Position numbers and translations under genes: made by a program
Notes under the pieces: model-generated
Database searches by the model: none
What the model was told of the DNA's origin: nothing
What the model saw: only the letters and a program-made list of their open reading frames with translations
Source: an uncultured Actinomycetota bacterium
Lineage (GTDB): Bacteria; Actinomycetota; Actinomycetes; Mycobacteriales; Mycobacteriaceae
Reading direction: 5' to 3'
DNA: 64,000 nt
Assembly: GCA_963820045.1 (NCBI GenBank)
Contig: CAWFYN010000007.1
Location: forward strand, 21,832 to 85,831
Shown here: piece after piece, positions 4,295 through 22,316 of the stretch
Layout of the letters: every line of letters begins with the position of its first letter
Position numbering within the stretch: position 1 is the first letter of the stretch

Positions 4295-4340
4295 GCATCC
4301 ACCTATGCGTATGTTCCCGTGCCGTTGCGAACAGGGGCGC

Positions 4341-4362: not shown

Positions 4363-4372
4363 TAGGGGTCTT

Positions 4373-5446: not shown

Positions 5447-6540
5447 CGGCAGTGGTAGAGGAATTCGGCGCGTGGCTGGCGGACTTCTTGCCCAAGGACT
5501 ACTACGCGGACTATCGCCGATACCGCTGGGATCTGACGTTGCGGCGTGACTACCAACGGGCCGCCTTCGAGGCCGGGTGGATACAGCCGACCTGGCCCCG
5601 CGAGCACGGCGGTCGATCGCTGGGTTTGCGGGACGCGATGGAGGTTCGAATCGAGGCGGCGCTGCGGTCGGCGCCGAAACTACCCAACATTCAGGGTCCT
5701 GGCGTCGCCGCGCCCGGCATCCGGCAGTTCGGCACGCCCGACCAGATCGACCGCCTGCTGGTTCCGCTGTTGCGCGGTGACGAATGGTGGGCGCTGGGCA
5801 TGTCCGAGCCGGAAGCCGGCTCCGATTTCGCCGGGCTGCGCACGCGCGCCGAGCGTGACGGCGACGTATTTCGGGTGAACGGTCACAAGATATGGACCAC
5901 CCAGGCCCACGAGTCGCGGTGGTGCACCCTGTATGCCCGTACCGACCCGGCGGCGCCGAAGCACCGCGGCATTTCCTGCCTCATTCTCGACCTGCACGCG
6001 CCGGGGGTGCGGATCGAGCCCATCCGCATGGCGTCGATCTCCGACGAGACTTTCTGCGAGGTCTTCCTCGACGACGTCGAGGTGCCGGTGGAAAACCTGC
6101 TGGGGCCGCTCAACGGCGGGTGGAACGTCGCACTGTCCTCGCTGCACCATGAACGCCAAATGATCTGGATCATGAACTGGGTCGAGATCAAGCGCGGACT
6201 TGACTCGGTACGCAGGGCGCAGCCGACCGCCGATATCTGCACCGAGCTCGGTTCCCTGCTCGCCGACGCCGAAGCGTTGCGGGCCACCGGATACCGCGCA
6301 CTGGGCAACGAACTGGCGGGTCGGAGCAGCCCGGAGGCGGATACCATGAAACTGCTCGGATCGGTTACCTTGCAACGTGTTTGGGAACTCGCCGCCGTCG
6401 CCGAAGGAACCCAGTCACTTAGCGACCCGGATCTGCTCTTCGAACGCCAGGACGCGCTGGCCGCGACCATCTATGGCGGAACGTCGGAGGTCCAGCGCAA
6501 CATCATCGCCGAGCGGCTGCTCGGGCTGCCGAAGGGATGA
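5443..6540 (+). CDS. Acyl-CoA dehydrogenase, alpha-type subunit
   Basis: ATGA overlap; GMSEPEAGSD, NGHKIWTT, IYGGTSEVQRNII. Confidence 0.92.
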   Translation: MTAVVEEFGAWLADFLPKDYYADYRRYRWDLTLRRDYQRAAFEAGWIQPTWPREHGGRSLGLRDAMEVRIEAALRSAPKLPNIQGPGVAAPGIRQFGTPDQIDRLLVPLLRGDEWWALGMSEPEAGSDFAGLRTRAERDGDVFRVNGHKIWTTQAHESRWCTLYARTDPAAPKHRGISCLILDLHAPGVRIEPIRMASISDETFCEVFLDDVEVPVENLLGPLNGGWNVALSSLHHERQMIWIMNWVEIKRGLDSVRRAQPTADICTELGSLLADAEALRATGYRALGNELAGRSSPEADTMKLLGSVTLQRVWELAAVAEGTQSLSDPDLLFERQDALAATIYGGTSEVQRNIIAERLLGLPKG

Positions 6541-7694
6541 CGACGATGGATTACGACCTCGGCGACGACGCCGCACAATTGCGAAACCACCTGCGCGAGC
6601 TGGTATCCAACCACATCCCCGCCGACTTCCTCGGCGCCTGCACCGAGAACCCGCGTGACCTGGCCACCACCGAGACGTTCTGCAAACTACTGGCCGCCGA
6701 GGGCCTGCTGGCGCTGGCCTGGCCGAAAGAACATGGCGGCGGCGGCGGTTCGGTGTGGCAGCAGACGGTGCTGCGCGAGGAGATGTGGGCCCAGCACGAG
6801 CCCCGCGGACCCCAGTACATGGGTATCAACTGGGTGGGCCCGGCGCTGATGCGTTATGGAACGGCCGAGCAGAAGGCCAAGCACCTGTCGGCCATCGCCG
6901 CCGGTGACGTGATCTGGTGTCAGGGCTTTTCCGAGCCGGAGGCCGGGACCGACCTCGCCTCGTTGCGCACCCGCGCGGTGCCGGACGGGGACGGTTGGCG
7001 CATCACCGGCCAGAAGGTGTGGACGTCGTACGCGCTGATGGCATCCTGGTGTGTGCTGGCGGCGTGCACCGATCCCGACGCCCCAAAGCCCAAGCGGCTC
7101 ACCCTGTTTCTGGTTCCGATGGACCGGCCAGGCTTCACCGTCCGGCCGATCGGGTCAATGCTGGGGCCGCATCACCTCAACGAGATGTTCCTGGACGACG
7201 TGCAGGCGTTTCCCGGCGATGTCCTCGGCGACGTCGGCGACGGCTGGCGGGTGATGCGCGAAGCGCTGGCATTCGAGCGGGTGGGCATCGCCCGCTACGC
7301 GCGGTGTGAGTCGCTGCTAGAGCGGATGCGCGCACAGCTCGGCGACGACTGGGGCGCTCTGCCCGAATCACTTCGCTCGCGGTGGGTGCGGGCGCTCGTC
7401 GATCTCCGGGTGGCCAGGCTGCTGGCCTATCGAGCCGTGTCACTCCAGGATGACCCCGCGGCGGGCGCGGCAGCCAGCGCGGCCCGCATCGCGACCACGA
7501 CGTGCGACCAGCAAGTCGCCGAGCTGCTTTTCGACGTGCTGGGCCCCGTCGCGCTGGACAGCGGCGCCGGCGCACCGCTGCACGGGGCGATCGAGGACCA
7601 TTGGCGTTACGCACAGGCGGCCACCGTGGCATCGGGCACCATCGAAGTGCAGAAGATGTTGGTGGCCCGGGACGTGTTGGGAGAGCACCGGTGA
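6537..7694 (+). CDS. Acyl-CoA dehydrogenase, alpha-type subunit
   Basis: GFSEPEAGTD, GQKVWTS, ASGTIEVQK. Confidence 0.92.
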   Translation: MTTMDYDLGDDAAQLRNHLRELVSNHIPADFLGACTENPRDLATTETFCKLLAAEGLLALAWPKEHGGGGGSVWQQTVLREEMWAQHEPRGPQYMGINWVGPALMRYGTAEQKAKHLSAIAAGDVIWCQGFSEPEAGTDLASLRTRAVPDGDGWRITGQKVWTSYALMASWCVLAACTDPDAPKPKRLTLFLVPMDRPGFTVRPIGSMLGPHHLNEMFLDDVQAFPGDVLGDVGDGWRVMREALAFERVGIARYARCESLLERMRAQLGDDWGALPESLRSRWVRALVDLRVARLLAYRAVSLQDDPAAGAAASAARIATTTCDQQVAELLFDVLGPVALDSGAGAPLHGAIEDHWRYAQAATVASGTIEVQKMLVARDVLGEHR

Positions 7695-8626
7695 AAACCG
7701 ATTTGCCACAAGACATCAGCGACTTCGCCGCGGTCGCGGCCAAGCGACTCGGCCGGCTGGGCGGGCCGCCGGCGGCGTTGCGCGCCGAGACCGACGACGG
7801 CGTCCGGGACGCCGCGCGCACGGCCCTGGCCGAAGTCGGCGCGTTCGAACTCGATGTCCGGTCGGACCCGGATGACCTGCTGGCCGCCGCCGTGCTCTGC
7901 CGGGCCGCCGGCGCAACCGTGTTGCCCTACCCCCTTGTCGAAGAGTTGCTGGCGATCGACGGCGCCCGCCTCGCTTTGGTCAACCCGGCGGCCCCGCGCA
8001 TCGACCATGGCGACCTCCCCGGTGACTGGATCGCCGCGGACCTGGACGGCACCCGGTACCAGCCGCGCCCGGCGTCGCGGACCACCGCCAAACTCGGGCC
8101 GTTTTTGGTGCCGGCTTCCCTCGGCGCACCCGATGGAACTGTTCCGGCCGACGACGTTAACCTTCATCTCGTGCTGGGGTCATGGCGGATTCTGGGATCG
8201 ATGCAGCAGGCGCTGCGGATCGTCACTGATCATGTGCGCGCCCGCGTCCAGTTCGGTAAGCCGCTGGCGGATTTCCAGGCCGTCAGGTTCGCCGTCGCGG
8301 AGGCTGCCGTCGCCGTGCGGGGGCTGTACGAATTGGCGAAATTCACTGTCTGCCGGCCGGAATCGCTACCGATACAGATCCGCTCCGCGGACGCACTCGT
8401 CCTTCGGCTCAAGGCATCCGACACCGCGCGGCAGATCCTACGCACCTCCCACCAGTTGCTCGGCGCTCTGGGTTTTTGCGACGAATCCGACGTGAGTGTG
8501 CTCGACCGACACACCCAGCCCCTGATCCGGTTGCCGCTGGGCGCCGAGGCGCTCGCGTTGCGCCTGATCCGGGGCGTCCCGGACGGCTCCCTGGAGACGC
8601 TGTTCAGCGGGCCGGTATCGGCGTGA
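7691..8626 (+). CDS. Acyl-CoA dehydrogenase, short beta-type subunit
   Basis: GTGA overlap; RVQFGKPLADFQAVR, HQLLGALGFCDE. Confidence 0.88.
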   Translation: MKTDLPQDISDFAAVAAKRLGRLGGPPAALRAETDDGVRDAARTALAEVGAFELDVRSDPDDLLAAAVLCRAAGATVLPYPLVEELLAIDGARLALVNPAAPRIDHGDLPGDWIAADLDGTRYQPRPASRTTAKLGPFLVPASLGAPDGTVPADDVNLHLVLGSWRILGSMQQALRIVTDHVRARVQFGKPLADFQAVRFAVAEAAVAVRGLYELAKFTVCRPESLPIQIRSADALVLRLKASDTARQILRTSHQLLGALGFCDESDVSVLDRHTQPLIRLPLGAEALALRLIRGVPDGSLETLFSGPVSA

Positions 8627-10119
8627 GCGAATCCGCCGCGGCCGAAGTGGCTGCCAACCCGTTAGCGGACGGGATCCCGTTCGGGGTCAAGCTTCAGGAG
8701 CTCGCCGAGCAGCGTCCAGACGACACTGGGCTGACGATCGTCGCCCTCGACGGGACCGCGCAGTCGCTGACGTTCGGTGAACTCGACGCCCGCGCCAACC
8801 AGTGGGGCCGGGCGCTGGCCGCCCACCGCGCCGAGACCGGTTCCCTTGTCGCGCTGGCCATTCCCAACTCGCAGCACCTCGTGCTGGCGACGCTGGGGTG
8901 CTGGAAGATCGGCGCCGTTCCCGTGCCCATGCACTGGGACCTGCCCGAGTGGGAGCGCGACAGGGTACGCGAGGTGATCAACCCCGCGGTGGTCGTCGAC
9001 GAGGCGAGTCGATGGCGCCTCGAGGCGCGAGCGGCGGCCGAGTCTGCCGACGCCCTGCCCGAGGCCGTCTCCCCCAACGTCAACGGCATCTGCAGCAGCG
9101 GTTCGACCGGCGTACCGAAAGTGATCCTCAGCCTGGCGCCGTCGCTGTGGACCCCTCAGCACGGCGAGCCGTTCCTGTCGAACTGGACGCCGGTGGCTCA
9201 GCCGCAGACCATCATGGTGCCCGCGCCGATGTATCACACCAACGGCTTCGCCACTTTTTTCTTCCTGCTGGCCGGTGACCATTTGGTGGTGCTGGAAAAG
9301 TTCGATGCCGCATTGGCTCTGGATGTGATCGAACGCTTCAAGATCACCAATTTCACGGCAACGCCCACGATGCTGGCGCGCATCGCGGCCCGACCGGACG
9401 TTCGGCAGCGAGACCTGTCCAGCATCGTCTTCGTTCTGCAGGGCGCCGCCGTGATGCCGCCGGCGCTCATGCATACCTGGTTCGAACTGCTGAGCCCGCA
9501 GCAGATCGTGTCGGCATACGGCATGACCGAAAACCTTGGGCTCACCGCGTTGCGCGGTGACGAGTGGCTTGCCCATCCCGGCAGCGTCGGCCGCGGTTTC
9601 CGCGATACCGAGATCAGGATTCTCGACGCCGGAACGAAGCAGCTTGGCCCCGGCGAACACGGCGAGATCTATCTGCGCGCACCGATGAGCGCCGGGTCCC
9701 GCTATGTCGGCGGCGCGCCGCCCCTACCGTCGACCCAGGATGGCTTCCGCTCCGCCGGGGACATCGGCTATGTGGACGAGGACGGCTACCTCTACATCGT
9801 CGACCGCCGGGTCGACATGATCATCACCGGCGGCGCGAATGTGTTTCCGGCGGAAGTGGAGTCGGCTTTGGCGGGTCATCCCGGCATCGCCGACGTCGTC
9901 GTCATCGGCCTGGCCGACCCGCAGTGGGGACGTCGGGTGCACGCGGTCGTACAGCTCGCCGACGGCGCGGCGCTCACCGAAGGGCAGGTGATCGAGTACG
10001 CGAAGAGTCGGCTCGCCCACTACAAGGCCCCGAAGACAGTCGAGTTCGTCGACGCGATTCCCCGCACCGCGGCGACCAAGGTCAATCGTTCGGCCATGAT
10101 CGAGGCCCGGGGCGGCTGA
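8623..10119 (+). CDS. AMP-dependent acyl-CoA synthetase
   Basis: GTGA overlap; SSGSTGVPK, YGMTE, GDIG, DRRVDMIITGGANVFPAEVE. Confidence 0.92.
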   Translation: MSESAAAEVAANPLADGIPFGVKLQELAEQRPDDTGLTIVALDGTAQSLTFGELDARANQWGRALAAHRAETGSLVALAIPNSQHLVLATLGCWKIGAVPVPMHWDLPEWERDRVREVINPAVVVDEASRWRLEARAAAESADALPEAVSPNVNGICSSGSTGVPKVILSLAPSLWTPQHGEPFLSNWTPVAQPQTIMVPAPMYHTNGFATFFFLLAGDHLVVLEKFDAALALDVIERFKITNFTATPTMLARIAARPDVRQRDLSSIVFVLQGAAVMPPALMHTWFELLSPQQIVSAYGMTENLGLTALRGDEWLAHPGSVGRGFRDTEIRILDAGTKQLGPGEHGEIYLRAPMSAGSRYVGGAPPLPSTQDGFRSAGDIGYVDEDGYLYIVDRRVDMIITGGANVFPAEVESALAGHPGIADVVVIGLADPQWGRRVHAVVQLADGAALTEGQVIEYAKSRLAHYKAPKTVEFVDAIPRTAATKVNRSAMIEARGG

Positions 10120-10613: not shown

Positions 10614-11159
10614 TCAGGGATGTTCGTCTTGGACGCCGAAGGTATTGACGGCCATCGCCAAGAGAAGATACCCACCGATCGTGAAGACCAGATCCATACG
10701 TTGCTGGTCACTGAAAGAGCGGCCCAACTCGTCCCAGGTGGGCCGCGTGATGCTGCTGGACGCAGTCAACTCATCGACGGCGCGAATCACCGTCGCGTCC
10801 AAGGGGTCTACGGCGTCGCCGGACCGGATGCCGCTGATGTCCCGGGCACTCAGGCCGGCGCTTTCCGCGATGGGTAGGTGGTGGGACCACAGGTATGCAC
10901 ACTCGCCACGGTGCACGGCACGCAGCAGCGCAACCTCCCTGATCCGGGGGGAGAGCGTCGAGCCCTTCAGCAAGTAGGCGTTGAAGGGAAGGTAGGCGCG
11001 GGTGAGGTCGGGATGGCGTACCAAGGTTGACAACACGTTGCCGGCCCCGCTCGGGTCCGCCCGCTCCGCCGGTATCAGGGAGGCGAGCGAAGCGCGGGCA
11101 TGCTCATCCCACTCCTCGGTCGGCAAGGGCGTCAACCGAACTGGGCGCGGGTCGGTCAT
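10614..11159 (-). CDS. Carboxymuconolactone decarboxylase (CMD/AhpD-like) family protein
   Basis: ATG 11159; NVLSTLVRHP, LSPRIREVALLR..YLWSHH, DLVFTIGGY. Confidence 0.8.
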   Translation of the reverse strand: MTDPRPVRLTPLPTEEWDEHARASLASLIPAERADPSGAGNVLSTLVRHPDLTRAYLPFNAYLLKGSTLSPRIREVALLRAVHRGECAYLWSHHLPIAESAGLSARDISGIRSGDAVDPLDATVIRAVDELTASSSITRPTWDELGRSFSDQQRMDLVFTIGGYLLLAMAVNTFGVQDEHP

Positions 11160-11167
11160 GGCGCTGG

Positions 11168-12013
11168 CTATTGGATCGGTTCGTCGCCGAGCACGGTCGT
11201 GCGCAGCATCTCGCGCTGCGAGGTGGGATCGTAGGGGGCGGCGCGGTGCAGCACTCCGCGGTTGTCCCAGATGACGGTGTCCCCCACCGACCATTGGTGG
11301 CTGTACACCTTGTCCGCCTTGGTGGCCCGCTCGAGTAACTCCTGAAGCAGCGCCCGGCCCCCGTCGAGATCCATGCCCACCACGTAGTCGGCCGATGCGC
11401 CCAGCACCAGCGACTTACGGCCACTGCGGTGCGTCCACACCAGCGGGTGTTCATGCGTGCGCCGGGAGCGCCAGCCGGCCAGCTGCTTTTCCGACGGGTC
11501 GGGATGGACGCGCCGCTGAGACGCCTCCAGCGAGTGCACGACGCGAAGCGAGCCGAAGCGATCCTTCTCTTCGTCACTCAGTTCCTCATAGGCGGCATAG
11601 GAGTTGGCGAATTCGGTTTCGCCGCCCCACTCGGCGACCTGCACGGCCGACAGGACGGTGGCCTTCTGCGGGCACTCGTCACCGAGCGGGGTGCATCCAT
11701 CGATGTGCCAGTCGAAAGTGGCCTTCAGTATTTCCGCCGAGGAGTTCTTCGCCGGGTTCAGCGAGATGGGATAAATCCCGGCCACCGGGTGATGCCCGTC
11801 AGCGGAGTGATCGACCTCGCCCAGCAGGCGACAGAAATCTACCTGGGTCTCGGGGGCGAGCTGCAGACCGCGGAAGACCAGAACCCCGTTGTGCTCCAAG
11901 GCATCCAGGACCGCGTCGCCGACGGGGTCGCCGGAAGCCAGCCGCGCCGGATCGAGGCCGGTGACTTCGGCGCCGACGGACGCGGTGAGCTTGTTGATGG
12001 TGAGCAGACTCAT
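11168..12013 (-). CDS. TauD/TfdA family Fe(II)/2-oxoglutarate dioxygenase
   Basis: ATG 12013; WHIDG, GGETEFAN, IWDNRGVLHRA. Confidence 0.92.
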   Translation of the reverse strand: MSLLTINKLTASVGAEVTGLDPARLASGDPVGDAVLDALEHNGVLVFRGLQLAPETQVDFCRLLGEVDHSADGHHPVAGIYPISLNPAKNSSAEILKATFDWHIDGCTPLGDECPQKATVLSAVQVAEWGGETEFANSYAAYEELSDEEKDRFGSLRVVHSLEASQRRVHPDPSEKQLAGWRSRRTHEHPLVWTHRSGRKSLVLGASADYVVGMDLDGGRALLQELLERATKADKVYSHQWSVGDTVIWDNRGVLHRAAPYDPTSQREMLRTTVLGDEPIQ

Positions 12014-12054
12014 GGTCTGTCCTTCCTGACGAAGCGCATGGATGCCGGCACGGG

Positions 12055-12390
12055 TCAGGGCACCGGTTCGACGGTGCGAATCATGACCGCGTCGGCGGCG
12101 CTGACCGGCGCGGGTTGGTGCATGATCTCGACCGCCATCGCGACCATGATGAGCGAATAGATCAGGTACAGCAGGTTGAGCGCGTCGTCGGGCATGTTGT
12201 CGAGCGGGAACTTGTCGCAGTACTCGATGGCCTCCTCGAGCCGAGGAAAGAATGCGTCGTAGAACTGGTGCATCTCGGGCATCGTGCTGGTAACCCTGGC
12301 GTCCCAGCGTTCGGTTTCCGTCGCCAGGCACCACCTTCGGGCGAACTTCTCCAATTCAGCGAATGCGCTGGGCAGCAGGACATCTGACAT
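12055..12390 (-). CDS. Hypothetical 111-aa protein directly downstream of Rieske oxygenase 1 (paralog of 16615-16953)
   Basis: MSDVLLPSAFAELEKFARRWCLA..FYDA..YCDKF..EPVP; strong similarity to second copy. Confidence 0.85.
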   Translation of the reverse strand: MSDVLLPSAFAELEKFARRWCLATETERWDARVTSTMPEMHQFYDAFFPRLEEAIEYCDKFPLDNMPDDALNLLYLIYSLIMVAMAVEIMHQPAPVSAADAVMIRTVEPVP

Positions 12391-12394
12391 GGGA

Positions 12395-13663
12395 TCAAAC
12401 TCCCGCCGTCGTCGGCGCGCGTTCGCCCTGGTAGGCATTGACCCAGTCGACGACCACCTTGTGCAGGTGGCGTACCAGGATTTCCTGGTCGCTGAGTGGA
12501 AACTCATCGACGATGCCGTATTCCAGCGCGGCCTGTGTACCGCCGAGCATCCCCGCGTCCTGCAGCGCGAACTCCTTGAGTACCACCGACGCCACTTCGT
12601 GTTCGATGCGTTCGCGCACGCTGCGAGCGGGGTGGAAGTAGGTGTAGGCCTCGAAGCGATGCGTGTTGTGCGAGGTGGGCCAATACCGATAGAGCAGATA
12701 CCAGCCGCCGTAGATCAATATCTCGATATTGGGGAAGATCTGGAAATTGCTGATCCCCCAGGGCTCGATGTTTCCCGGGTTGAGGCCGGGCGGTAGCGCA
12801 CCGATATCCGGCGTGCGCCAAGGGCCCACGAGTCCGCTCTGAGTGGCACGCTCGATCGGATACATGAACTCAGGGGACAGCAGCCACCGCCGCCGCCCGG
12901 CGGTCGACACCAGCCGATGCGGACCGTCGAGCTGGAAGTGACCACAGGTGAATCCGGCATTGGGGTCGCGCACGTCGGGGGGTACTTGCTGCGGATGCAG
13001 CGAAGGCACGTGGTAGTACTCCTGGAACGCGTCGGCGAAGATCTTCCAGTTGCTGTTGTTGTGCGCCACCCACTCGTAGCGTTCGGTCAGCTTGTCGAAG
13101 GGGTAGCCGTCGAGACCCGTGACCATGGGTCCGAGAAAGTCGCGCAGGCTCTGCCGCGGTTCGTCGTCGAGGTTGATGAAGACGAACCCGTTCCAGACGT
13201 CGCAATGCACGGGCCGCAGTCCGTAATCGGACAAGTCGAGGTCGAAGAATTCGGCTTCCTGCTGCACGAATTTCAAGGCGCCCTCGAGGTCGTAACGCCA
13301 GCCGTGGTACTTGCAGGTGAATTGCCGGCAGGTGCCCCGCGTCTCCTCGGCCGGAATGTCGTTCCACACCAGTTTGTTTCCTCGATGGCGGCACACGTTG
13401 TAGAAGGCGCGGATGTGCTCGTCTCGCCCCTTCACCACAATGACCGAAGTCCCGGCGACCTCGATCTCTTTGGTCAGGTAGCTGCCGACGCGGGGCAGCT
13501 CCTCGACCCTGGCGACGTTGAGCCAGGCGCGTTTGAAGATCGCCTCGCGTTCGAGTTGGTAGAACTCCGGCGAGGTGGAGTCGCCGAATGACACATCGCC
13601 GGTGCCCAATTCGGGGTAGTGTTCGGTCCACGACCCCTCCGGGGGCCTGCCTGACCGGGTCAT
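12395..13663 (-). CDS. Rieske ring-hydroxylating-type oxygenase alpha subunit (copy 1)
   Basis: ATG 13663 with GGAGG RBS; CRHRG..CKYHGW; DAFQEYYHVPSLH; QDA. Confidence 0.93.
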   Translation of the reverse strand: MTRSGRPPEGSWTEHYPELGTGDVSFGDSTSPEFYQLEREAIFKRAWLNVARVEELPRVGSYLTKEIEVAGTSVIVVKGRDEHIRAFYNVCRHRGNKLVWNDIPAEETRGTCRQFTCKYHGWRYDLEGALKFVQQEAEFFDLDLSDYGLRPVHCDVWNGFVFINLDDEPRQSLRDFLGPMVTGLDGYPFDKLTERYEWVAHNNSNWKIFADAFQEYYHVPSLHPQQVPPDVRDPNAGFTCGHFQLDGPHRLVSTAGRRRWLLSPEFMYPIERATQSGLVGPWRTPDIGALPPGLNPGNIEPWGISNFQIFPNIEILIYGGWYLLYRYWPTSHNTHRFEAYTYFHPARSVRERIEHEVASVVLKEFALQDAGMLGGTQAALEYGIVDEFPLSDQEILVRHLHKVVVDWVNAYQGERAPTTAGV

Positions 13664-13715
13664 CTGATCCTCCTGATCGACGCAGAAGTCGAACGCCTGA
13701 GTGCGGAAACGGTTG

Positions 13716-14459
13716 TCACAACACCGCCCCGCCGTTGACGCCCAAAACCTGGCCGGTGATATACCTGGCCTCCTCCGAGCACAAGAAACCCACCGCCGCG
13801 GCAACGTCCGCCCCCGTGCCCAAGAAGCCCAGCGGGATGTTGGCGGCGATCTGCTCGTTGGAGGGCAGGTAGCCGGCAACCTGCCCTTGATGCTGCATCG
13901 GTGTTTCGATGCCCGACGGCGGGATGTTGTTGACCGTGATGCCGTACGAGGCATACTCCCGCGCAAGGGATTTCGTCAGCGTGATGACGCCGCCTTTGGA
14001 CGCCGCGTAATGCGCGGCGAACGGCGAGCCCCGTTGAGCGCTGGACGACGAGATCATCACGATCCTGCCCCACTTCGCATCGACCATGTCCGGAAGCGCA
14101 ATCTGGCAGCAATGAAACGTGCCGGTCAGATTGACGTCGATGATTCGCGCCCACGATTCGGCGGTGATGTCGGCGAAGGCCGAAAATCCGAACAGCCCGG
14201 CGCTGGTGACCAACACCGTGACACCGCCCAACTCGCTGCGGACCTTGGCGAAGGCCTGCTCGAGCGCGGTCCTGTCGGTGACATCGGCGCTTACCCCGAC
14301 AGCGCTGACGCCCTCGGCACGCAAGTCTTCGGTGACGCGCTGCGCCGCTTGCTCGTTGACGTCAAGGACAGCGACCTTGTGCCCGCGCCTGCCAAGTTCG
14401 TGACACGTGGCTTCACCCATGCCGGAGGCTCCGCCCGTCACCACGGCTACCCGGCTCAT
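13716..14459 (-). CDS. Short-chain dehydrogenase/reductase
   Basis: TGGASGMG, NLTG, YAASK, ITGQVLGVNGG. Confidence 0.92.
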   Translation of the reverse strand: MSRVAVVTGGASGMGEATCHELGRRGHKVAVLDVNEQAAQRVTEDLRAEGVSAVGVSADVTDRTALEQAFAKVRSELGGVTVLVTSAGLFGFSAFADITAESWARIIDVNLTGTFHCCQIALPDMVDAKWGRIVMISSSSAQRGSPFAAHYAASKGGVITLTKSLAREYASYGITVNNIPPSGIETPMQHQGQVAGYLPSNEQIAANIPLGFLGTGADVAAAVGFLCSEEARYITGQVLGVNGGAVL

Positions 14460-14490
14460 CGACTCCGCCCCATCGCGGTAGCTCCCTTGT

Positions 14491-14820
14491 TCACTCGTAG
14501 ACCACGCGCACGGTGCGGCTGGTCGGCAGCGCCTGGCAGGTCAACACCCAACCCTGGATGACCTCGTCGTCATCGAGTGCGTCGTTGTTGAGCATCCGGG
14601 CGCTTCCCTGCGTCAGCCGCGCCATGCACGTTGCGCAGGAACCGGTTTCGCACGAGGAGGGCGCGGCCAAGCCGGCCATGCGGGCGGTCTGCAGCAAGGT
14701 GTCGCCCGCACTGTAGGGCACCGTGGTGGCGCGCCGGTCCAGCTCGATGGTCACTTCCTCGGTCACGACCCCGTCGTTGTCGTGCGGCCCCGCCCCGGCG
14801 GCCGCGGTGGACTCTGACAT
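14491..14820 (-). CDS. Stand-alone [2Fe-2S] ferredoxin (resembles KshB/PaaE C-terminal domain)
   Basis: SSCETGSCATC..VLTCQA. Confidence 0.9.
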   Translation of the reverse strand: MSESTAAAGAGPHDNDGVVTEEVTIELDRRATTVPYSAGDTLLQTARMAGLAAPSSCETGSCATCMARLTQGSARMLNNDALDDDEVIQGWVLTCQALPTSRTVRVVYE

Positions 14821-14828
14821 CCCCCGAA

Positions 14829-14863
14829 CAATATCAACTACTTGCCATTAATATCAAGTACTA
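14829..14863. promoter_or_regulatory. Candidate MarR operator: AATATCAA(C/G)TACT twice, 20 nt apart; first copy shares 17 bp with 18348-18364
   Basis: CAATATCAACTACTTGC is the exact reverse complement of GCAAGTAGTTGATATTG at 18348. Confidence 0.65.
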
Positions 14864-14919
14864 GAGATACATCGTTGCGGTGCACCGCCCAAGCGCGGCG
14901 TCGACCGGCAGCGTCAACG

Positions 14920-15372
14920 TCAGTTGTCGACGTGGTCGTTGAAAAGCTCGTGGCCGGTGCCCTTTTCGACTACGCGGCCCAGCAGCTCGCGCAGCGTCTG
15001 CTGCTCCTGCACGCTGAGCACACCGAACACCTCCTCGTGAGCGGCGATCGCGTCGTTGACGACCGTTCCCGCGACGTTTCGGCCCTCCCCCGTGAGGTGG
15101 GCCCGGAGGATGCGGCCGTGCTGGGGATCTGGTTTCCTCTCCACCAGGCCACGCCGTTCCAGGGCGGTCAGCGCGAGCTGAACCCCTTGCGGGCTGATCA
15201 ACAGACGCCGGGCGAGTTCGGCTCCGGAAAGGCCGGGCTCATTGGCGAGTTGGCGCAACACACCGATCTGGGCGGTGCTGACGCCGTGCACTCGCATGGC
15301 GTCGTTGATGGTGGTCAGCGAATAGTAGAAGGCCTGCTTGAGCAGCCACAGGATGTTATCGGTGAGTTCCAT
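14920..15372 (-). CDS. MarR family transcriptional regulator
   Basis: STAQIGVLRQL..SGAELARRLLISPQGVQLALTALERRGLVERKPDPQHGR. Confidence 0.92.
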   Translation of the reverse strand: MELTDNILWLLKQAFYYSLTTINDAMRVHGVSTAQIGVLRQLANEPGLSGAELARRLLISPQGVQLALTALERRGLVERKPDPQHGRILRAHLTGEGRNVAGTVVNDAIAAHEEVFGVLSVQEQQTLRELLGRVVEKGTGHELFNDHVDN

Positions 15373-16618
15373 GCTCGGCTCCCTGCTTGTAGATCTCGCC
15401 GCCCTTCATGACAAACGGCACCTCAAGTGTGGTGTCGATGTCCCGGGAGGGATCGCCGGGCACGGCGATGATGTCGGCGAGGTAGCCGGGCGCCAGCCGG
15501 CCCAGTTCGTCGTCTGCGTCGATGAGCTCCGCGGCCACGACGGTGGCCGCCCGGATCGCCTGCATCGGCGACATGCCCCGCTTCACCAGCGCGCCGAGCT
15601 CCTTGGCGTTTTGCCCGTGCGGAATCGCCGGCGCGTCGGTGCCGCATGCGATCCGGACGCCGGCGGCAATCGCCTTGGGGAGCATGGCTTTCGCCCGCGG
15701 GAAGACCTCTTCGGCTTTCCGGCGGAGCTCGGGCGCGATCCGGTCGATCGCCATGGCCTCGGTCAAATACGTGGTCGAGACCAGGAAGGTGCCGTGATCG
15801 ACCATCATCTGGATGGTCTCGTCGCTGGCCAGGAACCCGTGTTCGATGCAGTCGATTCCGGCACGGATGCACGCCTGTATCGCGCTGTCGCCGACGGCGT
15901 GGGCGGCCACCCGGACTCCGGCGCGGTGAGCTTCGTCGGCGATCGCGGCGAATTCGGCATCGGAGTATTGCTGCGCGCCGGGGGCGGTGCTGTGGGACAT
16001 GACCCCGCCTGACGCGGACACCTTGATCAGCTTGGCGCCGTGCCGAACTTGGTACCGGACACAGGCAATGACGTCCGGCACCCCGTTGGCGATGCCCTCG
16101 GCAACCGACAGTGGCATGATCCCGGGCGCGAGCCGCTGAAAGACCGTGGGATCCAAGTGCCCGCCGTAGGGGGTGACGGCGTGACCCGCGGGATAGATAC
16201 GGGGACCGGCGTGCCAGCCCTGGTCGATGGCGCGCTGCAGCGCCACGTCGAGCAGGTAGCCGCCGGTCTTGACCATCAGGCCCAGGTTGCGCACGGTGGT
16301 GAAACCGGCCTCCAGCGTGGTGCGCGCGTTGACCGCACCACGCAAAGTCCGATAGGCCGGATCGTCTTGGACACCATGCATCGGCGACGGCAGGCCCTCG
16401 GGTCCACCGGGGCCGCCGATCAGCAGGTTGAGCTCCATGTCCATTAGGCCCGGCAGCAACGTCACGTCTCCCAGGTCGACGACCGAGGCCGAATCCGGCA
16501 CGCCACCTTCGGGATTGATGGCGGCGATGCGCTCGCCCTCGACCACCACGACCGCCGGTGAGCGAACCTGGCCGTCGACGACGTCAGCCCATCGCGCCGC
16601 CCGCAGGACCGTGGTCAC
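15356..16618 (-). CDS. Metal-dependent amidohydrolase (prolidase-like, Amidohydro_1 type)
   Basis: GTGA overlap at 16618; LLPGLMDME, IKVSASGG, AAHA, CIEHG, GTDA, GRLAPGYLADIIAV. Confidence 0.88.
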   Translation of the reverse strand: MTTVLRAARWADVVDGQVRSPAVVVVEGERIAAINPEGGVPDSASVVDLGDVTLLPGLMDMELNLLIGGPGGPEGLPSPMHGVQDDPAYRTLRGAVNARTTLEAGFTTVRNLGLMVKTGGYLLDVALQRAIDQGWHAGPRIYPAGHAVTPYGGHLDPTVFQRLAPGIMPLSVAEGIANGVPDVIACVRYQVRHGAKLIKVSASGGVMSHSTAPGAQQYSDAEFAAIADEAHRAGVRVAAHAVGDSAIQACIRAGIDCIEHGFLASDETIQMMVDHGTFLVSTTYLTEAMAIDRIAPELRRKAEEVFPRAKAMLPKAIAAGVRIACGTDAPAIPHGQNAKELGALVKRGMSPMQAIRAATVVAAELIDADDELGRLAPGYLADIIAVPGDPSRDIDTTLEVPFVMKGGEIYKQGAEHGTHR

Positions 16619-16953
16619 GGAACGGGCTCGGACACGCAATCCAGGGTGGACGCACCGGAGTCGGGCACCCGGGGTTGCTTCCAGCACTCCACCGGAAACG
16701 ACACCATGATCATCGAATACAGTAGGTGCATGAGATTCAGCACGTCGTCGGGCAAGTCGTCGAGGGAGAACTTGTCGCAGTAGGAGAGGGCCTCTTCCGC
16801 CCGGGGCATGATTGCGTCGTAGAAGGCCTTCATATCCGTCATGGTGCTCGCCAGCCGCTTGGCGTAGCGCTCAGGTTCAGAAGCCAGACACCAGTCCGCG
16901 AATTGTTCCAGGTCGGCGAATTCACTTGGCAGCATGGGGGACATCGCGCTCAC
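16615..16953 (-). CDS. Hypothetical 112-aa protein directly downstream of Rieske oxygenase 2 (paralog of 12055-12390)
   Basis: GTGA overlap with Rieske stop; MLPSEFADLEQFADWCLA..FYDA..YCDKF..EPVP. Confidence 0.85.
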   Translation of the reverse strand: MSAMSPMLPSEFADLEQFADWCLASEPERYAKRLASTMTDMKAFYDAIMPRAEEALSYCDKFSLDDLPDDVLNLMHLLYSMIMVSFPVECWKQPRVPDSGASTLDCVSEPVP

Positions 16954-18218
16954 ACTCCCGCCGTGGAGGTCCGGCGATACTGATCGATCCACGCCGCGGT
17001 CTCCTTGTGCAAGTGCCGCAGCAAGATCTCCTGATCGTTGAGCAGGAACCGATCGATCACACGCGACTCGATCATGCTTTGCGTCGCCTCCAGCGTGTTG
17101 GCGTCCTGCAGGCCGTATTCCTTGAACGAGACCGCCGCGAGTTCCTGGGCGACGCGCTCGCGCGGAGTGCGCGGCTCCGGGAAGTACAGCGTTCCCTCGA
17201 AGATGTGGGAGTTATACGAGGTGGGCCAGTAGTGGTACGTCAGATACCAGCCCTGACCCCAGAACAAAATCACGAAGTTGGGGAACAGCTGGAATGAATC
17301 CAGCCCCCATGGATCACACTTCGCGGGGTTGAGCCCGGCGGGCATCTCGCCCAGATCCGGCTTGTCCCAGGGACCGAACAGCCCGCTCTGGCAGATGTCT
17401 TCGATCGGCTTGCGCATCTCGGCCGACATCTCCCAGGCCCGCACGCCCGATGTGCTGACCAGCCGGTGCGGGCCGTCCAAACGGTAATGCGGTGCCTCAA
17501 AACCGGCCTCGGCGGCCGCCTTCGAGTACGCCGTCGGTGACTGGTTCGCGTGCAGCACGGGTGCGTGGTAGAACTCCTGGAACGCGTCCATGTAGAGCTT
17601 CCAGTTCGCCTTGACCTCCGAGCGGTAACACCAGCGCGAGGTCATCTTGTCGAATGGATAGCCCTGAAGGCCCATGACCATGGGCCCGAGGAATTCCCGC
17701 AGCGACTGTGCGGGCTCCTTGGCGAAGTTGACGAAGATGAAGCCTTCCCACACTTCGCAGTGCACCGATACCAACCCGTAGCGGCTCTTGTCGAGGTCGA
17801 AGAACTCCTCCTCCTGCTGGACGAAGGTCAGATTCCCGTCCAGGTCGTACCGCCAGGCGTGGTACTTGCAGGTGAATTGGCGGCACACACCGCTGGTTTC
17901 CTCGAGCGGCATGTCGTTCCACACCAGCTTGTTCCCGCGGTGGCGGCAGACGTTGTGATAGGCCTTGATTTCCCCGGACTTCGTGCGCACCAGGATGATC
18001 GAGGTGTTGACGGCCTTGAGTTCTTTGGTGAAGTAGCTGCCGGTCCGCGAGAGTTGTTCGACGCGACCGACATTGAGCCAGGCCCGCTTGAAGATCGCTT
18101 CGCGTTCCAACTCGTGGATCTCCGGACTGATGGAATCCTCATATGAGACCGGTCCGGTTCCCAGTTCGGGGTAGTGCTGCGTCCAGCTGCCCTCCGGGGG
18201 CTTGGGGAATCGAGGCAT
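16950..18218 (-). CDS. Rieske ring-hydroxylating-type oxygenase alpha subunit (copy 2)
   Basis: CRHRG..CKYHAW; DAFQEFYHAPVLH; QDA; ends TAGV like copy 1. Confidence 0.93.
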   Translation of the reverse strand: MPRFPKPPEGSWTQHYPELGTGPVSYEDSISPEIHELEREAIFKRAWLNVGRVEQLSRTGSYFTKELKAVNTSIILVRTKSGEIKAYHNVCRHRGNKLVWNDMPLEETSGVCRQFTCKYHAWRYDLDGNLTFVQQEEEFFDLDKSRYGLVSVHCEVWEGFIFVNFAKEPAQSLREFLGPMVMGLQGYPFDKMTSRWCYRSEVKANWKLYMDAFQEFYHAPVLHANQSPTAYSKAAAEAGFEAPHYRLDGPHRLVSTSGVRAWEMSAEMRKPIEDICQSGLFGPWDKPDLGEMPAGLNPAKCDPWGLDSFQLFPNFVILFWGQGWYLTYHYWPTSYNSHIFEGTLYFPEPRTPRERVAQELAAVSFKEYGLQDANTLEATQSMIESRVIDRFLLNDQEILLRHLHKETAAWIDQYRRTSTAGV

Positions 18219-18347
18219 GAGCGCTCCTATCCGATCTCACCGGGGCCGCCCGACGGACGGTTCACTCCGAATGGCCGGGCAGCCACCGGTTTCAGTGATT
18301 CCGTAGGACTCCGTCGGGGCCGACGGTATATGCTCGACCGGATAATC

Positions 18348-18364
18348 GCAAGTAGTTGATATTG
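18348..18364. promoter_or_regulatory. Candidate MarR operator, second copy
   Basis: GCAAGTAGTTGATATTG, 16 nt upstream of the ALDH ATG. Confidence 0.65.
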
Positions 18365-18380: not shown

Positions 18381-19826
18381 ATGGATCAAAACCTTGGGTT
18401 GCGTGTCGCTCGGGGCCGCTCGGTGCTCTCGCACGCAGAGGTGTTCGAGGTCATCTCCCCGCACACCGAGGAACCCATCGCCGAAGTGGCCGCCGCCGGA
18501 CCGACAGACGTCGAAGCGGCGGTCGGCGCCGCGCGCGCAGCGCTCGACTCGGGAGCCTGGAGCCGAACCGACCCCGCCGGACGGATCGCGGCGATCCGGC
18601 GCCTCGCCGACATCTACGACCAACGGCGCGCAGAAATGGCCGGTGTCATCACCGCCGAGATCGGCGCTCCCATCACCTTCGCGCAGCGCGCCCAAGTCGG
18701 CCTGCCCGCGATGATGATGCGCGCATTCTGCGACCTCGCCGAGCGGCACACCTGGAAGGAGACCCGCCGCGGCTTCTTCGGTGCCGACGTGCACGTGCAC
18801 AAGGAACCCGTCGGCGTGGTCGCCGCGATCGTGCCGTGGAATATGCCCCAATTCCTCATCGCCACCAAATTGGTGCCCGCGCTGCTCGCCGGGTGCGCCG
18901 TTCTGCTCAAACCCGCGCCCGAATCACCCTTGGACGCAATGCTTCTGGGGGAGATGCTCGACGAAATCGGCCTGCCCCCGGGCCTGGTCAGCATCCTGCC
19001 CGGCGGCAGTTCCGTCGGTGAACTCCTGGCATCCCACCCGGGTGTGGACAAAGTGTCGTTCACGGGATCGACGGCCGCGGGGCGCGCCGTCGCAGCCGCA
19101 TGCGCGGTGAATCTCACGAAGGTCAGCCTCGAGCTCGGCGGCAAATCGGCCGCCATCATCCTCGATGACGCCGCACCCGAGGCGGTCGCCACAGGCGTGC
19201 GATCAGCGAGCCTGTCGAACAGCGGGCAAATTTGCAACGCCCTCACCCGCCTATTGGTCCCCCGCCACGACCACGACGAGTATGTCGATGCGCTCGCGGC
19301 GGAGATGACCACGCTGCGAGTGGGCGATCCCAGCGATCCCGCTACCCAGCTGGGCCCGCTGGTCTCCCGCCGCCAACAGACGCGCGTTCGCGATTACATC
19401 CGAATCGGCCAGGACGAAGGCGCCCGCCTCGTCACCGGCGGGACCGAAATGCCCGATGGGCTCGACCGCGGCTGGTACGTCGCGCCCACCCTGTTCGCGT
19501 CCGCCGCGAACAGCATGCGCATCGCCCGCGAAGAAATCTTCGGTCCCGTGATCACCGTCATTCCCTATCGCGACGAGGACGACGCCGTCGCGATCGCCAA
19601 CGACTCCGACTACGGCCTGGCGGGATCGGTGTGGGCCGCCGACACCGACCGGGCTCTGTCGATCGCCGGGCGCGTGCGCAGCGGCACCGTCGGGATCAAC
19701 CAGGGCTACACCATGGATCCGTTCGCGCCGTTCGGCGGTGTGAAGGGCAGCGGTTACGGTCGCGAACTGGGACCCGAGGGCATCGAAAGCTACCTGGAAA
19801 CGAAATCGATCGCGGTTTCGCCGTAA
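18381..19826 (+). CDS. Aldehyde dehydrogenase
   Basis: PWN, FTGS, ELGGKSA, GQIC, EEIFGPV, PFGGVKGSG. Confidence 0.95.
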   Translation: MDQNLGLRVARGRSVLSHAEVFEVISPHTEEPIAEVAAAGPTDVEAAVGAARAALDSGAWSRTDPAGRIAAIRRLADIYDQRRAEMAGVITAEIGAPITFAQRAQVGLPAMMMRAFCDLAERHTWKETRRGFFGADVHVHKEPVGVVAAIVPWNMPQFLIATKLVPALLAGCAVLLKPAPESPLDAMLLGEMLDEIGLPPGLVSILPGGSSVGELLASHPGVDKVSFTGSTAAGRAVAAACAVNLTKVSLELGGKSAAIILDDAAPEAVATGVRSASLSNSGQICNALTRLLVPRHDHDEYVDALAAEMTTLRVGDPSDPATQLGPLVSRRQQTRVRDYIRIGQDEGARLVTGGTEMPDGLDRGWYVAPTLFASAANSMRIAREEIFGPVITVIPYRDEDDAVAIANDSDYGLAGSVWAADTDRALSIAGRVRSGTVGINQGYTMDPFAPFGGVKGSGYGRELGPEGIESYLETKSIAVSP

Positions 19827-19938
19827 TCGTCAGCCGCACCGGAGTTTGGGGTCGGTAACCGGCGGCGGGCGCAAGAATGTCCAGCAGATACTCGGAATCT
19901 TCTGCCCGAAGGCATGAGCGCCACGCCTGCCCGGACGC

Positions 19939-19957
19939 GCGGTAACCTCATTCTCAT
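19939..19957. promoter_or_regulatory. Degenerate copy of the 21052 palindrome upstream of the TetR-hotdog gene
   Basis: GCGGTAACCTCATTCTCAT, 14/19 identical to GTGGTAACGTCATTACCAC. Confidence 0.5.
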
Positions 19958-19995
19958 AGCGCGAGCACCGCGCCAGGGAAGGGGACGAAACGCTG

Positions 19996-21024
19996 ATGGC
20001 CGACCTTGGCGACGACGTCGAAGTGACGCGCGGCGACCGCTTCATCAAGACGGCCGTCGAGATCTTGGGCGAGACCGGACGCACCGACTTCACCGTGCAG
20101 GAAGTGGTCGCGCGCTCCAAGACGTCGCTGCGTGCCTTCTACCAGCATTTCAGCGGCAAGGACGAATTGCTGCTGGCACTGTTCGACCGGACCATCGCCC
20201 AATCGGTGGAGACCTGGCGCACCGAAACCGACGGGCTGGACAGCACCGCGGCACTGAAGCTGGTGATCGACCGCATCAGCCAGCAGCCGGAATCGAGCAC
20301 CCAAGACAGCCTCAATCGCGCACTGACTCTCTACAACCAACACTTGGCCGAGACCCGTCCCCGCGACTACGCCCGGGTCCTCTCACCGCTGCATCGGTTG
20401 ATTCGCGACATCGTGGGGCAGGGCATCACCGAGGGCGTCTTCAACCCCGGGCTGGACGTCGGGGCGGCGGCCGCAATCGTCATGCAGGCGGTGATGGGCG
20501 CGCAGCGGTTGCATTGGCTGGGAACGGAATTGAACGGGGCACCGGTTGACGTCGGCCAACTGTATGACTTCTGCAGTCGCGCCCTGGGCATCCGGGATAG
20601 CGACGAGGAGCCGGGCGCGCCGTCGCTGGCCGAGTTGTTCGCGCAGATCGGCATGCGGCCGGGAACCCGCGACGGCGAATTCGCCATGACGATGCCGGTC
20701 AGCCCGGCCGTCGTGAACACATCCGGCGCGCTGCAGGGCGGCTTGATCGCGACCCTCGTCGACGTGGCGGGTGGACAGTTCGGGCTTGACCACCTGCAGC
20801 CGGGCACCACGATGACCACGGCGGACCTCTTCGTTCGATACCTGCGTCCGATCCGGGCGGGCTCGGCGTTCGCGGTGCCCCGGATGCTGCGGTCCGGGCG
20901 GCGGGCGATGGTGATGCAAGTGGACATCTACGACGACGCCGACGAGCTGGTCGCGACGGCGACCGTGAATTTCGCCGTCATCAACGGAGAGACACCGACG
21001 ATCGGCCTACGCGCGGGCACCTAA
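19996..21024 (+). CDS. TetR family regulator fused to C-terminal PaaI-type hotdog (thioesterase) domain
   Basis: HTH FTVQEVVARSKTSLRAFYQHFSGKDELL; C-terminal VNTSGALQGGLIATLVD..YLRPIRAG. Confidence 0.88.
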   Translation: MADLGDDVEVTRGDRFIKTAVEILGETGRTDFTVQEVVARSKTSLRAFYQHFSGKDELLLALFDRTIAQSVETWRTETDGLDSTAALKLVIDRISQQPESSTQDSLNRALTLYNQHLAETRPRDYARVLSPLHRLIRDIVGQGITEGVFNPGLDVGAAAAIVMQAVMGAQRLHWLGTELNGAPVDVGQLYDFCSRALGIRDSDEEPGAPSLAELFAQIGMRPGTRDGEFAMTMPVSPAVVNTSGALQGGLIATLVDVAGGQFGLDHLQPGTTMTTADLFVRYLRPIRAGSAFAVPRMLRSGRRAMVMQVDIYDDADELVATATVNFAVINGETPTIGLRAGT

Positions 21025-21051
21025 CGCCCCTGTACACCTAGATAAATAAAA

Positions 21052-21070
21052 GTGGTAACGTCATTACCAC
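21052..21070. promoter_or_regulatory. Palindrome GTGGTAA-N5-TTACCAC, candidate TetR operator
   Basis: Perfect 7-bp arms next to AT-rich patch upstream of 21108. Confidence 0.7.
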
Positions 21071-21107
21071 CGACCGAGAACCCAAGTCCTTCCGCAAGGA
21101 GATCGCC

Positions 21108-22316
21108 ATGCCGTCTCGCGAACTTTCCTTCCCCGTGTTCGACGCGGACAACCACATGTACGAGCCCCAGGAGGCGCTGACCAAGTTCCTCCCCGACAAG
21201 CGCAAGAACGTCATCGACTACGTGCAGGTGCGCGGTCGCACCAAGATCGTGGTGCGCGGCCACATCAGCGAGTACATCCCCAACCCGACGTTCGAAAAGG
21301 TGGCACGCCCCGGCGCCCAGGAGGACTACTTCCGCAACGGCGCACAAGGCAAGACCTACCGAGAGATCCTCGGCGAGCCGATGAAGGCCATCCCCGCCTT
21401 CCGCGAACCGGGAGCCCGTCTAGAGGTCATGGACGAGCTCGGCATCGACTACGCCCTGATGTTCCCGACCCTGGCCAGCCTGGTCGAGGAACGCATGAAG
21501 GACGACCCGGAGATGACCCACGACGTCATCCACGCGCTCAACGAGTGGATGCACGAGCAGTGGTCGTTCAACTACAAGGACCGCATCTTCGCCACCCCGG
21601 TCATCACGCTTCCCATCGTCGAGCGCGCGCTCGAAGAACTCGAATGGTGCTTGGAGCGCGGTGCTCGCACCGTGCTGGTCCGTCCGGCGCCGGTGCCCGG
21701 TTACCGCGGCAGCCGGTCGTTCGGACTCGCGGAATTCGACCCGTTCTGGCAGGCCTGCATCAAAGCCGAGCTGCCGGTCTCGATGCACGCCTCGGACAGT
21801 GGTTACTCGGAGTTCGCGAACGTGTGGGAGCCCGGCGACGAGTTCCTGCCGTTCAAGCCGACCGCCTTCCGCAGCTTCGCGATGGGCCATCGCCCGATCC
21901 TGGACGCAATGGGTGCGCTGGTGTGCCACGGCGCGCTGTCGCGCAACCCGGAGCTGCGGATCCTGTCGATCGAAAACGGCGCCGACTGGGTGCCAGACCT
22001 GTTCAAGGGCCTCAAGGGCGTCTACAAGAAGATGCCGCAATCGTTCAGCGAGGACCCGATCGAGGCGTTCAAGCGCTGCGTCTACATCACCCCGTTCTGG
22101 GAGGACCGGTTCACCGAGATCGTCAAGATGGTGGGGACCGACCGGGTGCTCTTCGGCTCCGACTGGCCGCACCCCGAGGGCCTGAAGGACCCCATCTCCT
22201 TCGTGGACGAGCTGACCGATTTCGACGCGGAGGACGTCGCCAAGATCATGGGCGGCAACCTGATGAAGCTGATGAAGGTTTCGGCGCCGGCTTCGAAGAA
22301 GCCCGTCTCGGCCTAG
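21108..22316 (+). CDS. Amidohydrolase_2-fold protein (possible dinuclear oxygenase)
   Basis: DADNH, MHAS, IENG, GSDWPHPEG. Confidence 0.88.
   Translation: MPSRELSFPVFDADNHMYEPQEALTKFLPDKRKNVIDYVQVRGRTKIVVRGHISEYIPNPTFEKVARPGAQEDYFRNGAQGKTYREILGEPMKAIPAFREPGARLEVMDELGIDYALMFPTLASLVEERMKDDPEMTHDVIHALNEWMHEQWSFNYKDRIFATPVITLPIVERALEELEWCLERGARTVLVRPAPVPGYRGSRSFGLAEFDPFWQACIKAELPVSMHASDSGYSEFANVWEPGDEFLPFKPTAFRSFAMGHRPILDAMGALVCHGALSRNPELRILSIENGADWVPDLFKGLKGVYKKMPQSFSEDPIEAFKRCVYITPFWEDRFTEIVKMVGTDRVLFGSDWPHPEGLKDPISFVDELTDFDAEDVAKIMGGNLMKLMKVSAPASKKPVSA

Follow-up and report, generated by a model that had tools for sequence, protein, structure and literature searches.

In a 64,000-nucleotide stretch of DNA from an uncultured Actinomycetota bacterium of the family Mycobacteriaceae (GenBank assembly GCA_963820045.1, contig CAWFYN010000007.1, forward-strand positions 21,832 to 85,831; hereafter the window), ten genes, all on the minus strand, span positions 10614-18218. 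The list of open reading frames (ORFs) and Pfam matches give their order of transcription as alpha2, small2, an Amidohydro_1 hydrolase, a MarR regulator, a Fer2 ferredoxin, a short-chain dehydrogenase/reductase (SDR), alpha1, small1, a TauD dioxygenase and a CMD protein. Alpha1 and alpha2 are catalytic (alpha) subunits of Rieske oxygenases, and each is followed directly by the gene for a protein of about 110 residues, small1 or small2. A description of a small Rieske oxygenase partner, or of the mycobacterial cluster, was not found in the literature, and the small proteins represent a real, well-conserved and apparently undescribed partner family of a known enzyme class. The two pairs are as follows.

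16950-18218, minus strand: alpha2, Rieske oxygenase catalytic subunit, 422 aa (Pfam Rieske 1.9e-14, Ring_hydroxyl_A 1.4e-34)
16615-16944, minus strand: small2, acidic partner predicted to be helical, 109 aa (53% identity to small1; family profile match 6.4e-40)
12395-13660, minus strand: alpha1, Rieske oxygenase catalytic subunit, 421 aa, start MTRSG (Pfam Rieske 2.4e-15, Ring_hydroxyl_A 1.9e-50)
12055-12390, minus strand: small1, acidic partner predicted to be helical, 111 aa (AlphaFold2 (AF2) model; no PDB fold match)

A preliminary description, made from the letters of the window, had recognised two paralogous Rieske alphas, each followed by a paralogous small protein. This is what we find. 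The alphas are 59% identical over their full length, and the small proteins align at 53% identity with an E value of 5e-40. The shared small-protein motifs quoted at the time (LPSxFAxLExFA, WCLAxExER, FYDA, YCDKFxLD, PDD and EPVP) are all present in the small1/small2 alignment. The ATG of small1 lies 4 nt past the alpha1 stop and that of small2 5 nt past the alpha2 stop, and the GGGAG Shine-Dalgarno sequence of each small ORF sits within the tail of its alpha gene. At the other end of small2, the stop codon and the likely GTG start of the amidohydrolase (16618) form a GTGA overlap at 16615-16618 (junction CCGTGACC), so that alpha2, small2 and the hydrolase make up a chain of translationally coupled genes. 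The amidohydrolase ORF call from 16687 is probably an over-extension; the orthologue in M. smegmatis has a 4-nt overlap with its small gene.

A profile search of 1.84 billion representatives recovered the small-protein family in 1155 clusters (50% identity), of which 569 fall below 1e-10, with members in Actinomycetota, Acidobacteria and deltaproteobacterial-type metagenome-assembled genomes (MAGs). Members that carry a name are all "hypothetical" or mislabelled. The UniRef label "Xaa-Pro dipeptidase", for instance, is attached to small-protein clusters P0003, P0023, P0071, P0082 and P0095, evidently through transfer of the annotation of the adjacent amidohydrolase, or through read-through gene calls. 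In several library representatives a frameshift has joined partner and neighbour into a chimera, and candidate Rosetta-stone fusions among these representatives (alpha-partner, partner-TauD and partner-amidohydrolase) were rejected as frameshifted or read-through gene calls.

Pairing was scored when a homologous alpha ended between -60 and +400 nt upstream of the small gene on the same strand. In the pooled loci, the small gene comes directly after a homologous Rieske alpha in 181 of 184 cases. Of the three exceptions, two sit where the retrieved DNA ends, and the remaining one comes from a MAG (L016) that yielded no intact alpha1 ORF, probably owing to frameshifts. Recurrence on this scale is far beyond chance, and the possibility, raised in the preliminary description, that homologues often occur without Rieske alphas is not borne out by these loci. 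Within Mycobacteriaceae, all 80 loci in which the alpha position is covered show the pairing, and the whole cluster is syntenic in the loci that cover it; M. smegmatis carries the orthologous cluster. A sample of 301 Actinomycetota genomes contains the family in 10 genomes at one to four copies each, with 28 paired matches. Among 301 genomes sampled from the phylum to which a deltaproteobacterial-type MAG belongs, the family occurs in two, and contexts from Acidobacteria and other MAGs were paired in 13 of 13 cases.

The association also holds in the reverse direction. Starting from the alpha orthologues of Nocardia, Gordonia, Actinomadura and an Acidimicrobiales MAG, the next gene encodes a family member in all four (E 1e-43 to 1e-47). 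In these four alpha1-orthologue loci a TauD gene comes after the small gene, and the alpha1-small1-TauD trio is kept as far as Actinomadura and Acidimicrobiales. The CMD gene is retained at its position in many loci. Other neighbours of the pairs vary, and include glycine reductase/cupin/SnoaL genes, a CoA-transferase, luciferase-like oxidoreductases, acyl-CoA dehydrogenases and TauD/SDR genes. SnoaL-type (NTF2-fold) genes recur near the pairs in Acidobacteria and other MAGs (loci L081, L122, L123 and L124).

The junction between the alpha and small genes falls between -20 and +16 nt in 169 of the 181 pairs, and overlaps of the ATGA/GTGA type (-1, -4 and -8 nt) recur in unrelated lineages. Across 133 non-identical pairs, the identity matrices of alphas and partners are strongly correlated (r = 0.94, Mantel p = 0.001), and the two clusterings agree with an adjusted Rand index of 0.96. 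The same correspondence is seen inside the host genome, whose three pairs mirror one another in identity (0.59/0.52/0.61 for the alphas; 0.54/0.46/0.63 for the small proteins). This genome encodes nine Ring_hydroxyl_A alphas, three of them with a partner, and one canonical beta gene that stands beside a different alpha. Two of its three pairs are in the window; the third is on another contig (C3:66934-68483; locus L091, 2982-8483), in an operon with the order alpha, partner, Amidohydro_1, SnoaL_4 and a two-gene acyl-CoA dehydrogenase. The first three of these genes recur as a trio, alpha-partner-amidohydrolase, at the alpha2 locus.

In a maximum-likelihood tree, the partner-bearing alphas, whatever their phylum, group in a single clade (support 98/99, stem 0.98) that leaves out all six partner-less alphas of the host genome. 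The support for this clade and the exclusion of the partner-less alphas make the partner a defining trait of one alpha clade, duplicated together with it. Co-duplication of the small protein with its alpha, as suggested previously for the two copies in the window, is confirmed quantitatively by the identity correlation, the cluster agreement and this tree. The sole partner-less alpha within the clade is an identical tandem copy on one metagenome contig (L123). Two identical 413-aa alphas are found there, at 3688-4929 and 5993-7234, with a partner and a SnoaL_2 gene between them, and the second has no partner behind it; the doubling stems from either a recent tandem duplication or an error of assembly.

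Neither small1 nor small2 has a Pfam match (E<=0.01) or an NCBIfam match. When 63 family members were scanned singly at E<=1, no consistent Pfam match was obtained, including to the beta-subunit family PF00866, and a profile search of PDB sequences with the small-protein family returned nothing (best E 1.8). An AF2 model of small1, built from a 63-sequence alignment, is all-helical and without strands, with a predicted local distance difference test score (pLDDT) of 86 and a predicted template modelling score (pTM) of 0.75; the fold counts four to five helices, at residues 8-20, 25-33, 37-58, 68-90 and 98-105. Foldseek comparison of this model with 350,542 PDB chains identified no neighbour (best E 1.7, template modelling score (TM) <0.4), and the matches include no beta-subunit chain, though many are deposited in the PDB. 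On this confidently predicted helical fold without a structural neighbour, the small protein does not belong to the NTF2-type beta subunits. Even a divergent NTF2-type beta subunit can be discarded on the strength of the modelled all-helical fold and the lack of a PF00866 match. The absence of a canonical NTF2-fold beta subunit from both pairs, which the preliminary description had stated, thus holds, and an ordinary beta-subunit fold, for which it had allowed, is not what the model gives.

Positions P7, W20, R28, R32, Y44, P67, L73 and E88 are invariant across the family, and the invariant or near-invariant glutamates are E14, E27 and E88. The small proteins are acidic, with 18-19 Asp+Glu against 8 Lys+Arg. 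Conserved Cys or His residues are absent across the family, as is a clustered metal site. A metal-binding maturase with Cys/His ligands was considered and rejected, the cysteines of the mycobacterial WCL and YCDKF motifs not being kept in distant members. Helix 4 (LNLLYLIYSLIMVAMAVEI) is markedly hydrophobic in the mycobacterial small1 group, where the Kyte-Doolittle mean over 19 residues is 1.8-2.0. The family median is 1.28, 13 of 63 members exceed 1.6, and small2 scores 1.37. The window of helix 4 usually includes two or three charged residues, the invariant Glu among them, and in the AF2 model of small1 this helix is packed on helix 3 within a soluble bundle.

Both alphas carry the Rieske ligands CRHRG...CKYH, the ligand loops lying at window positions 13300-13400 (alpha1) and 17850-17950 (alpha2). 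The iron motif is DAFQEYYH in alpha1 and DAFQEFYH in alpha2, and the E-Y-Y-H-x4-H pattern of alpha1 aligns to E205, H208 and H213 of CntA. In CntA, E205 is the bridging glutamate that carries electrons between subunits, a hallmark of group V Rieske oxygenases (PMC7948474). The Glu that had been noted in the DAFQExYH motif of both alphas is, judged by this alignment, a real bridging residue, and the trait was already known for group V. The Phe of DAFQEYYH aligns to CntA Y203, the subgroup Va position for a cation-pi contact; OxyBAC also has Phe at this position (PMC7948474).

Group V, the quaternary-amine Rieske monooxygenases (carnitine monooxygenase CntA/CntB, 6Y8J and 6Y9C; stachydrine demethylase Stc2, 3VCA and 4QUQ; glycine betaine monooxygenase GbcA/GbcB), provides the closest sequence and structure matches of the alphas. 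CntA and Stc2 are the best PDB sequence matches (phmmer 3.6e-28 to CntA, the alpha/CntA alignment covering only the N-terminal half), and the alpha model matches Stc2 with a Foldseek E value of 6.5e-22 and CntA with a target-normalised TM of 0.80-0.82. The alphas do not pass the GbcA equivalog model NF058607, scoring 131.6 and 120.4 bits where 670 are required. Like group V enzymes, they have the bridging Glu, an aromatic residue at the Y203 position, no NTF2-type beta subunit and, in relatives, a single FNR-Fer2 reductase. Unlike CntA and Stc2, which are alpha3 enzymes without a further protein, the partner-bearing clade always comes with a gene for the ~110-aa partner, and in the window the reductase is cut down to its Fer2 domain. 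The Rieske spacer also differs from that of group V: actinobacterial partner-bearing alphas have C-x-H-x23-C-x2-H in 113 of the 123 with the motif, whereas the spacer is 16-18 in most of the other alphas compared. HRGNKxxW is found in all partner-bearing alphas, and in 121 of 133 the second ligand pair is preceded by an extra Cys. This Rieske-loop signature may form a clade-specific surface near the cluster. An origin of the small protein by gene fission from a longer alpha was ruled out, as the partner-bearing alphas, at ~390-425 aa, are no shorter than Stc2 or CntA.

The remaining features of the cluster are listed below in the direction of transcription.

18343-18364: 22-nt motif, copy before alpha2, in the divergent region shared with an aldehyde dehydrogenase gene (repeat search)
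15356-16618, minus strand: Amidohydro_1-family hydrolase (Pfam 3.3e-39)
14920-15372, minus strand: MarR-family regulator, final gene of the alpha2 operon (Pfam MarR_2 7.1e-17)
14829-14850: 22-nt motif, second copy, just before the ferredoxin start (repeat search)
14491-14820, minus strand: plant-type [2Fe-2S] ferredoxin, 109 aa (Pfam Fer2 2.9e-16)
13716-14459, minus strand: SDR, 247 aa (Pfam adh_short 1.4e-59)
11168-12013, minus strand: TauD/TfdA-family 2-oxoglutarate dioxygenase, 281 aa (Pfam TauD 1.8e-56)
10614-11159, minus strand: CMD (AhpD-like) family protein, likely start MTDPRP (Pfam CMD 9.7e-08)

Pfam agrees with the earlier assignment of neighbours, in which copy 1 sits with the ferredoxin, SDR, TauD and CMD genes and copy 2 with the amidohydrolase and MarR genes. 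The two copies of the 22-nt motif (GCAAGTAGTTGATATTG core) are inverted with respect to one another and 95% complementary. The motif is probably the operator of the MarR regulator encoded between both operons, and its inverted copies before the ferredoxin and before alpha2 would fit one MarR-controlled regulon that covers both. We propose that the two alpha-small pairs belong to one MarR-controlled pathway.

The window ferredoxin is 72% identical to residues 266-355 of a 355-aa reductase encoded at the ferredoxin position in M. smegmatis, which has the architecture FAD_binding_6/NAD_binding_1/Fer2. In relatives, the FNR-Fer2 reductase at this position is 344-366 aa long, and the window ferredoxin corresponds to its C-terminal Fer2 domain. 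The clusters of M. smegmatis, Nocardia and Gordonia encode one such reductase of the CntB/GbcB type. A short spacing between the MarR and ferredoxin genes, as in the window, is found in loci L001-L015. With the flavin/NAD module lost in the lineage of the window, both oxygenases must take electrons from a reductase encoded elsewhere.

As for the substrate, a weak hint at an N-alkylated or quaternary amine comes from the Phe at the position of CntA Y203 and from the neighbouring genes for TauD, amidohydrolase, SDR and aldehyde dehydrogenase. At one stage or another the island may process its substrate in the form of a CoA thioester. On the plus strand, by eye, the flank at 7502-10119 has an ORF resembling the C-terminal part of an acyl-CoA dehydrogenase and a 547-aa ORF resembling an AMP-dependent ligase, and the flank at 18381-22316 has aldehyde dehydrogenase-like, TetR-hotdog fusion-like and Amidohydro_2-like ORFs. 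The M. smegmatis cluster has Aldedh and Amidohydro_2 genes at the position that matches the latter flank.

The genomic pattern makes it very probable that the small protein acts on its own alpha or together with it. We put the probability at about 0.5 that it is a stoichiometric, non-catalytic subunit dedicated to one Rieske alpha clade, a reading favoured by the overlap-type coupling, the private copy for each paralogous alpha and the conserved hydrophobic helix. The preliminary description had left the role open between an obligate non-canonical subunit, a maturase and a coupling factor, and this joint claim is supported by the gene pairing and the predicted fold. The further step, that the helical protein is an obligate third kind of component, present as alpha3 plus three partners and needed for stability or catalysis in >1000 enzymes of several phyla, falls somewhat short of an even chance on these comparisons. 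A 2025 review recognises alpha3, alpha3beta3, alpha3alpha'3 and alpha3alpha3 forms of Rieske oxygenases and leaves an accessory protein unmentioned (PMC12445004); the assembly of alpha3 with three helical partners would lie outside these four.

By analogy with CntA and Stc2, the alpha would form a head-to-tail alpha3 trimer, in which the bridging Glu would pass electrons between neighbouring subunits, from the Rieske cluster in one to the mononuclear iron in the other. The electrons would be supplied by a reductase of the FNR-Fer2 type, of which only the ferredoxin domain is left in the host genome cluster. Translational coupling could ensure that the partner is made in near-equal amounts to alpha. 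The partner would then bind alpha stoichiometrically via the conserved hydrophobic helix 4 and the invariant Arg, Glu and Trp residues, and the assembly of alpha3 with three partners would stabilise or complete the oxygenase. In this way the small protein would stand in for an NTF2-type beta subunit without kinship to it. Like the beta subunits of alpha3beta3 enzymes (PF00866; NDO, BPDO, HcaF), it would be a small, non-catalytic protein that is co-inherited with alpha and encoded directly downstream of it, and a supportive structural role is presumed for both. Unlike them, it gives no PF00866 sequence match, is predicted to be all-helical instead of an alpha+beta cone, and measures ~110 rather than ~150-190 aa.

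Physical contact between the two proteins was approached through a natural read-through. The alpha1 and small1 genes of M. paraffinicum share a reading frame, interrupted by the TGA stop of alpha1, and translation with table 4 yields one 534-aa chain that is 91% identical to the window alpha1 and 87% identical to the window small1. An AF2 model of this pseudo-fusion, from a block alignment with 3 read-through, 20 alpha and 45 partner rows, reached pLDDT 86.4 and pTM 0.78, with pLDDT 84-98 for four partner helices. The pTM of 0.78 exceeds our rough estimate of ~0.70 for a free-floating partner and so leans towards a defined docking, to which the model lends weak support. Several observations weigh against a permanent subunit. 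The pseudo-fusion had only 3 paired rows and a short linker that forces proximity, and its scores come without predicted aligned errors or contacts. Transient assembly factors also show tight operon linkage. A natural alpha-partner fusion is absent among the best 120 matches to the fused query, which are only ~420-aa alphas. Finally, CntA and Stc2 function as alpha3 without an extra subunit (PMC7948474, PMC12445004). Given these precedents, a structural subunit is not obviously needed.

Small cofactor-less proteins of ~10-15 kDa, encoded in the operon of an enzyme and needed for its assembly or activity, are familiar from other systems: DmpK/MmoD assembly proteins, MmoB/DmpM effectors and nitrile hydratase activators. 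These serve diiron or Co/Fe enzymes, not Rieske oxygenases, and no relation in sequence or fold to the small protein was detected. A transient assembly or maturation factor of this kind, which would bind nascent alpha, aid insertion of the iron or the Rieske cluster or formation of the trimer, and then leave, is unlikely but deserves some weight. Its analogues would be the helper proteins of diiron hydroxylases (DmpK/MmoD type) and the ~14-kDa activators whose genes follow those of nitrile hydratase, and the place of the small gene directly after the enzyme gene fits such activators. An acidic protein with the glutamates E14, E27 and E88 recalls iron-handling acidic proteins, whereas the lack of conserved Cys or His and of a clustered metal site does not suit a maturation factor. 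A further point in favour of this reading is that CntA and Stc2 need no permanent extra subunit (PMC12445004). However, the one-to-one co-duplication and the overlap coupling in nearly all lineages suggest equal stoichiometry and not a catalytic helper, and a private partner copy for each paralogous alpha, even within one operon system, implies that a single helper is not shared among alphas.

An effector or docking adaptor, which would gate O2 activation or substrate access in the manner of MmoB/DmpM, or dock the ferredoxin or reductase, seems distinctly improbable. The size of the small protein and its lack of cofactor ligands do resemble effector proteins, and the pairing holds whatever the remaining operon content. 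Redox partners dock on Rieske oxygenases near the surface of the Rieske loop, and the loop signature of the clade would lie near this presumed docking surface. Yet no Rieske oxygenase is known to need an effector, and none is given in the review (PMC12445004). The modelled fold is also unrelated to the MmoB type, with no Pfam or PDB match, and an acidic protein would be an unlikely bridge to an acidic ferredoxin. The small protein could instead have a pathway function of its own, as a ligand carrier or small regulator, and be co-inherited as a selfish two-gene cassette without binding alpha, since operon neighbours may be linked functionally rather than physically. This we consider highly unlikely: the pair never separates despite widely differing pathways, the rate of sequence change in the partner tracks that of alpha, and a 110-aa helical protein with a conserved hydrophobic helix and no pocket-forming fold makes an unlikely enzyme. 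A membrane tether formed by helix 4 is scarcely credible. The hydrophobicity of this helix in the mycobacterial small1 group would suit it, but the lower family median, the charged residues in the helix window, the value for small2 and the packing of the helix in a soluble bundle do not.

Much work on Rieske oxygenases is aimed at bioremediation, natural-product chemistry and biocatalysis, and their accepted components are an alpha subunit, an optional NTF2-type beta subunit, a ferredoxin and a reductase. If the small protein is indeed a dedicated subunit of its alpha, a widespread unannotated protein tied to one alpha clade would add a component type to this list. It could then account for failed heterologous expression of "alpha-only" enzymes, and annotation and enzyme mining would gain a simple rule, namely to co-express the downstream 110-aa gene.

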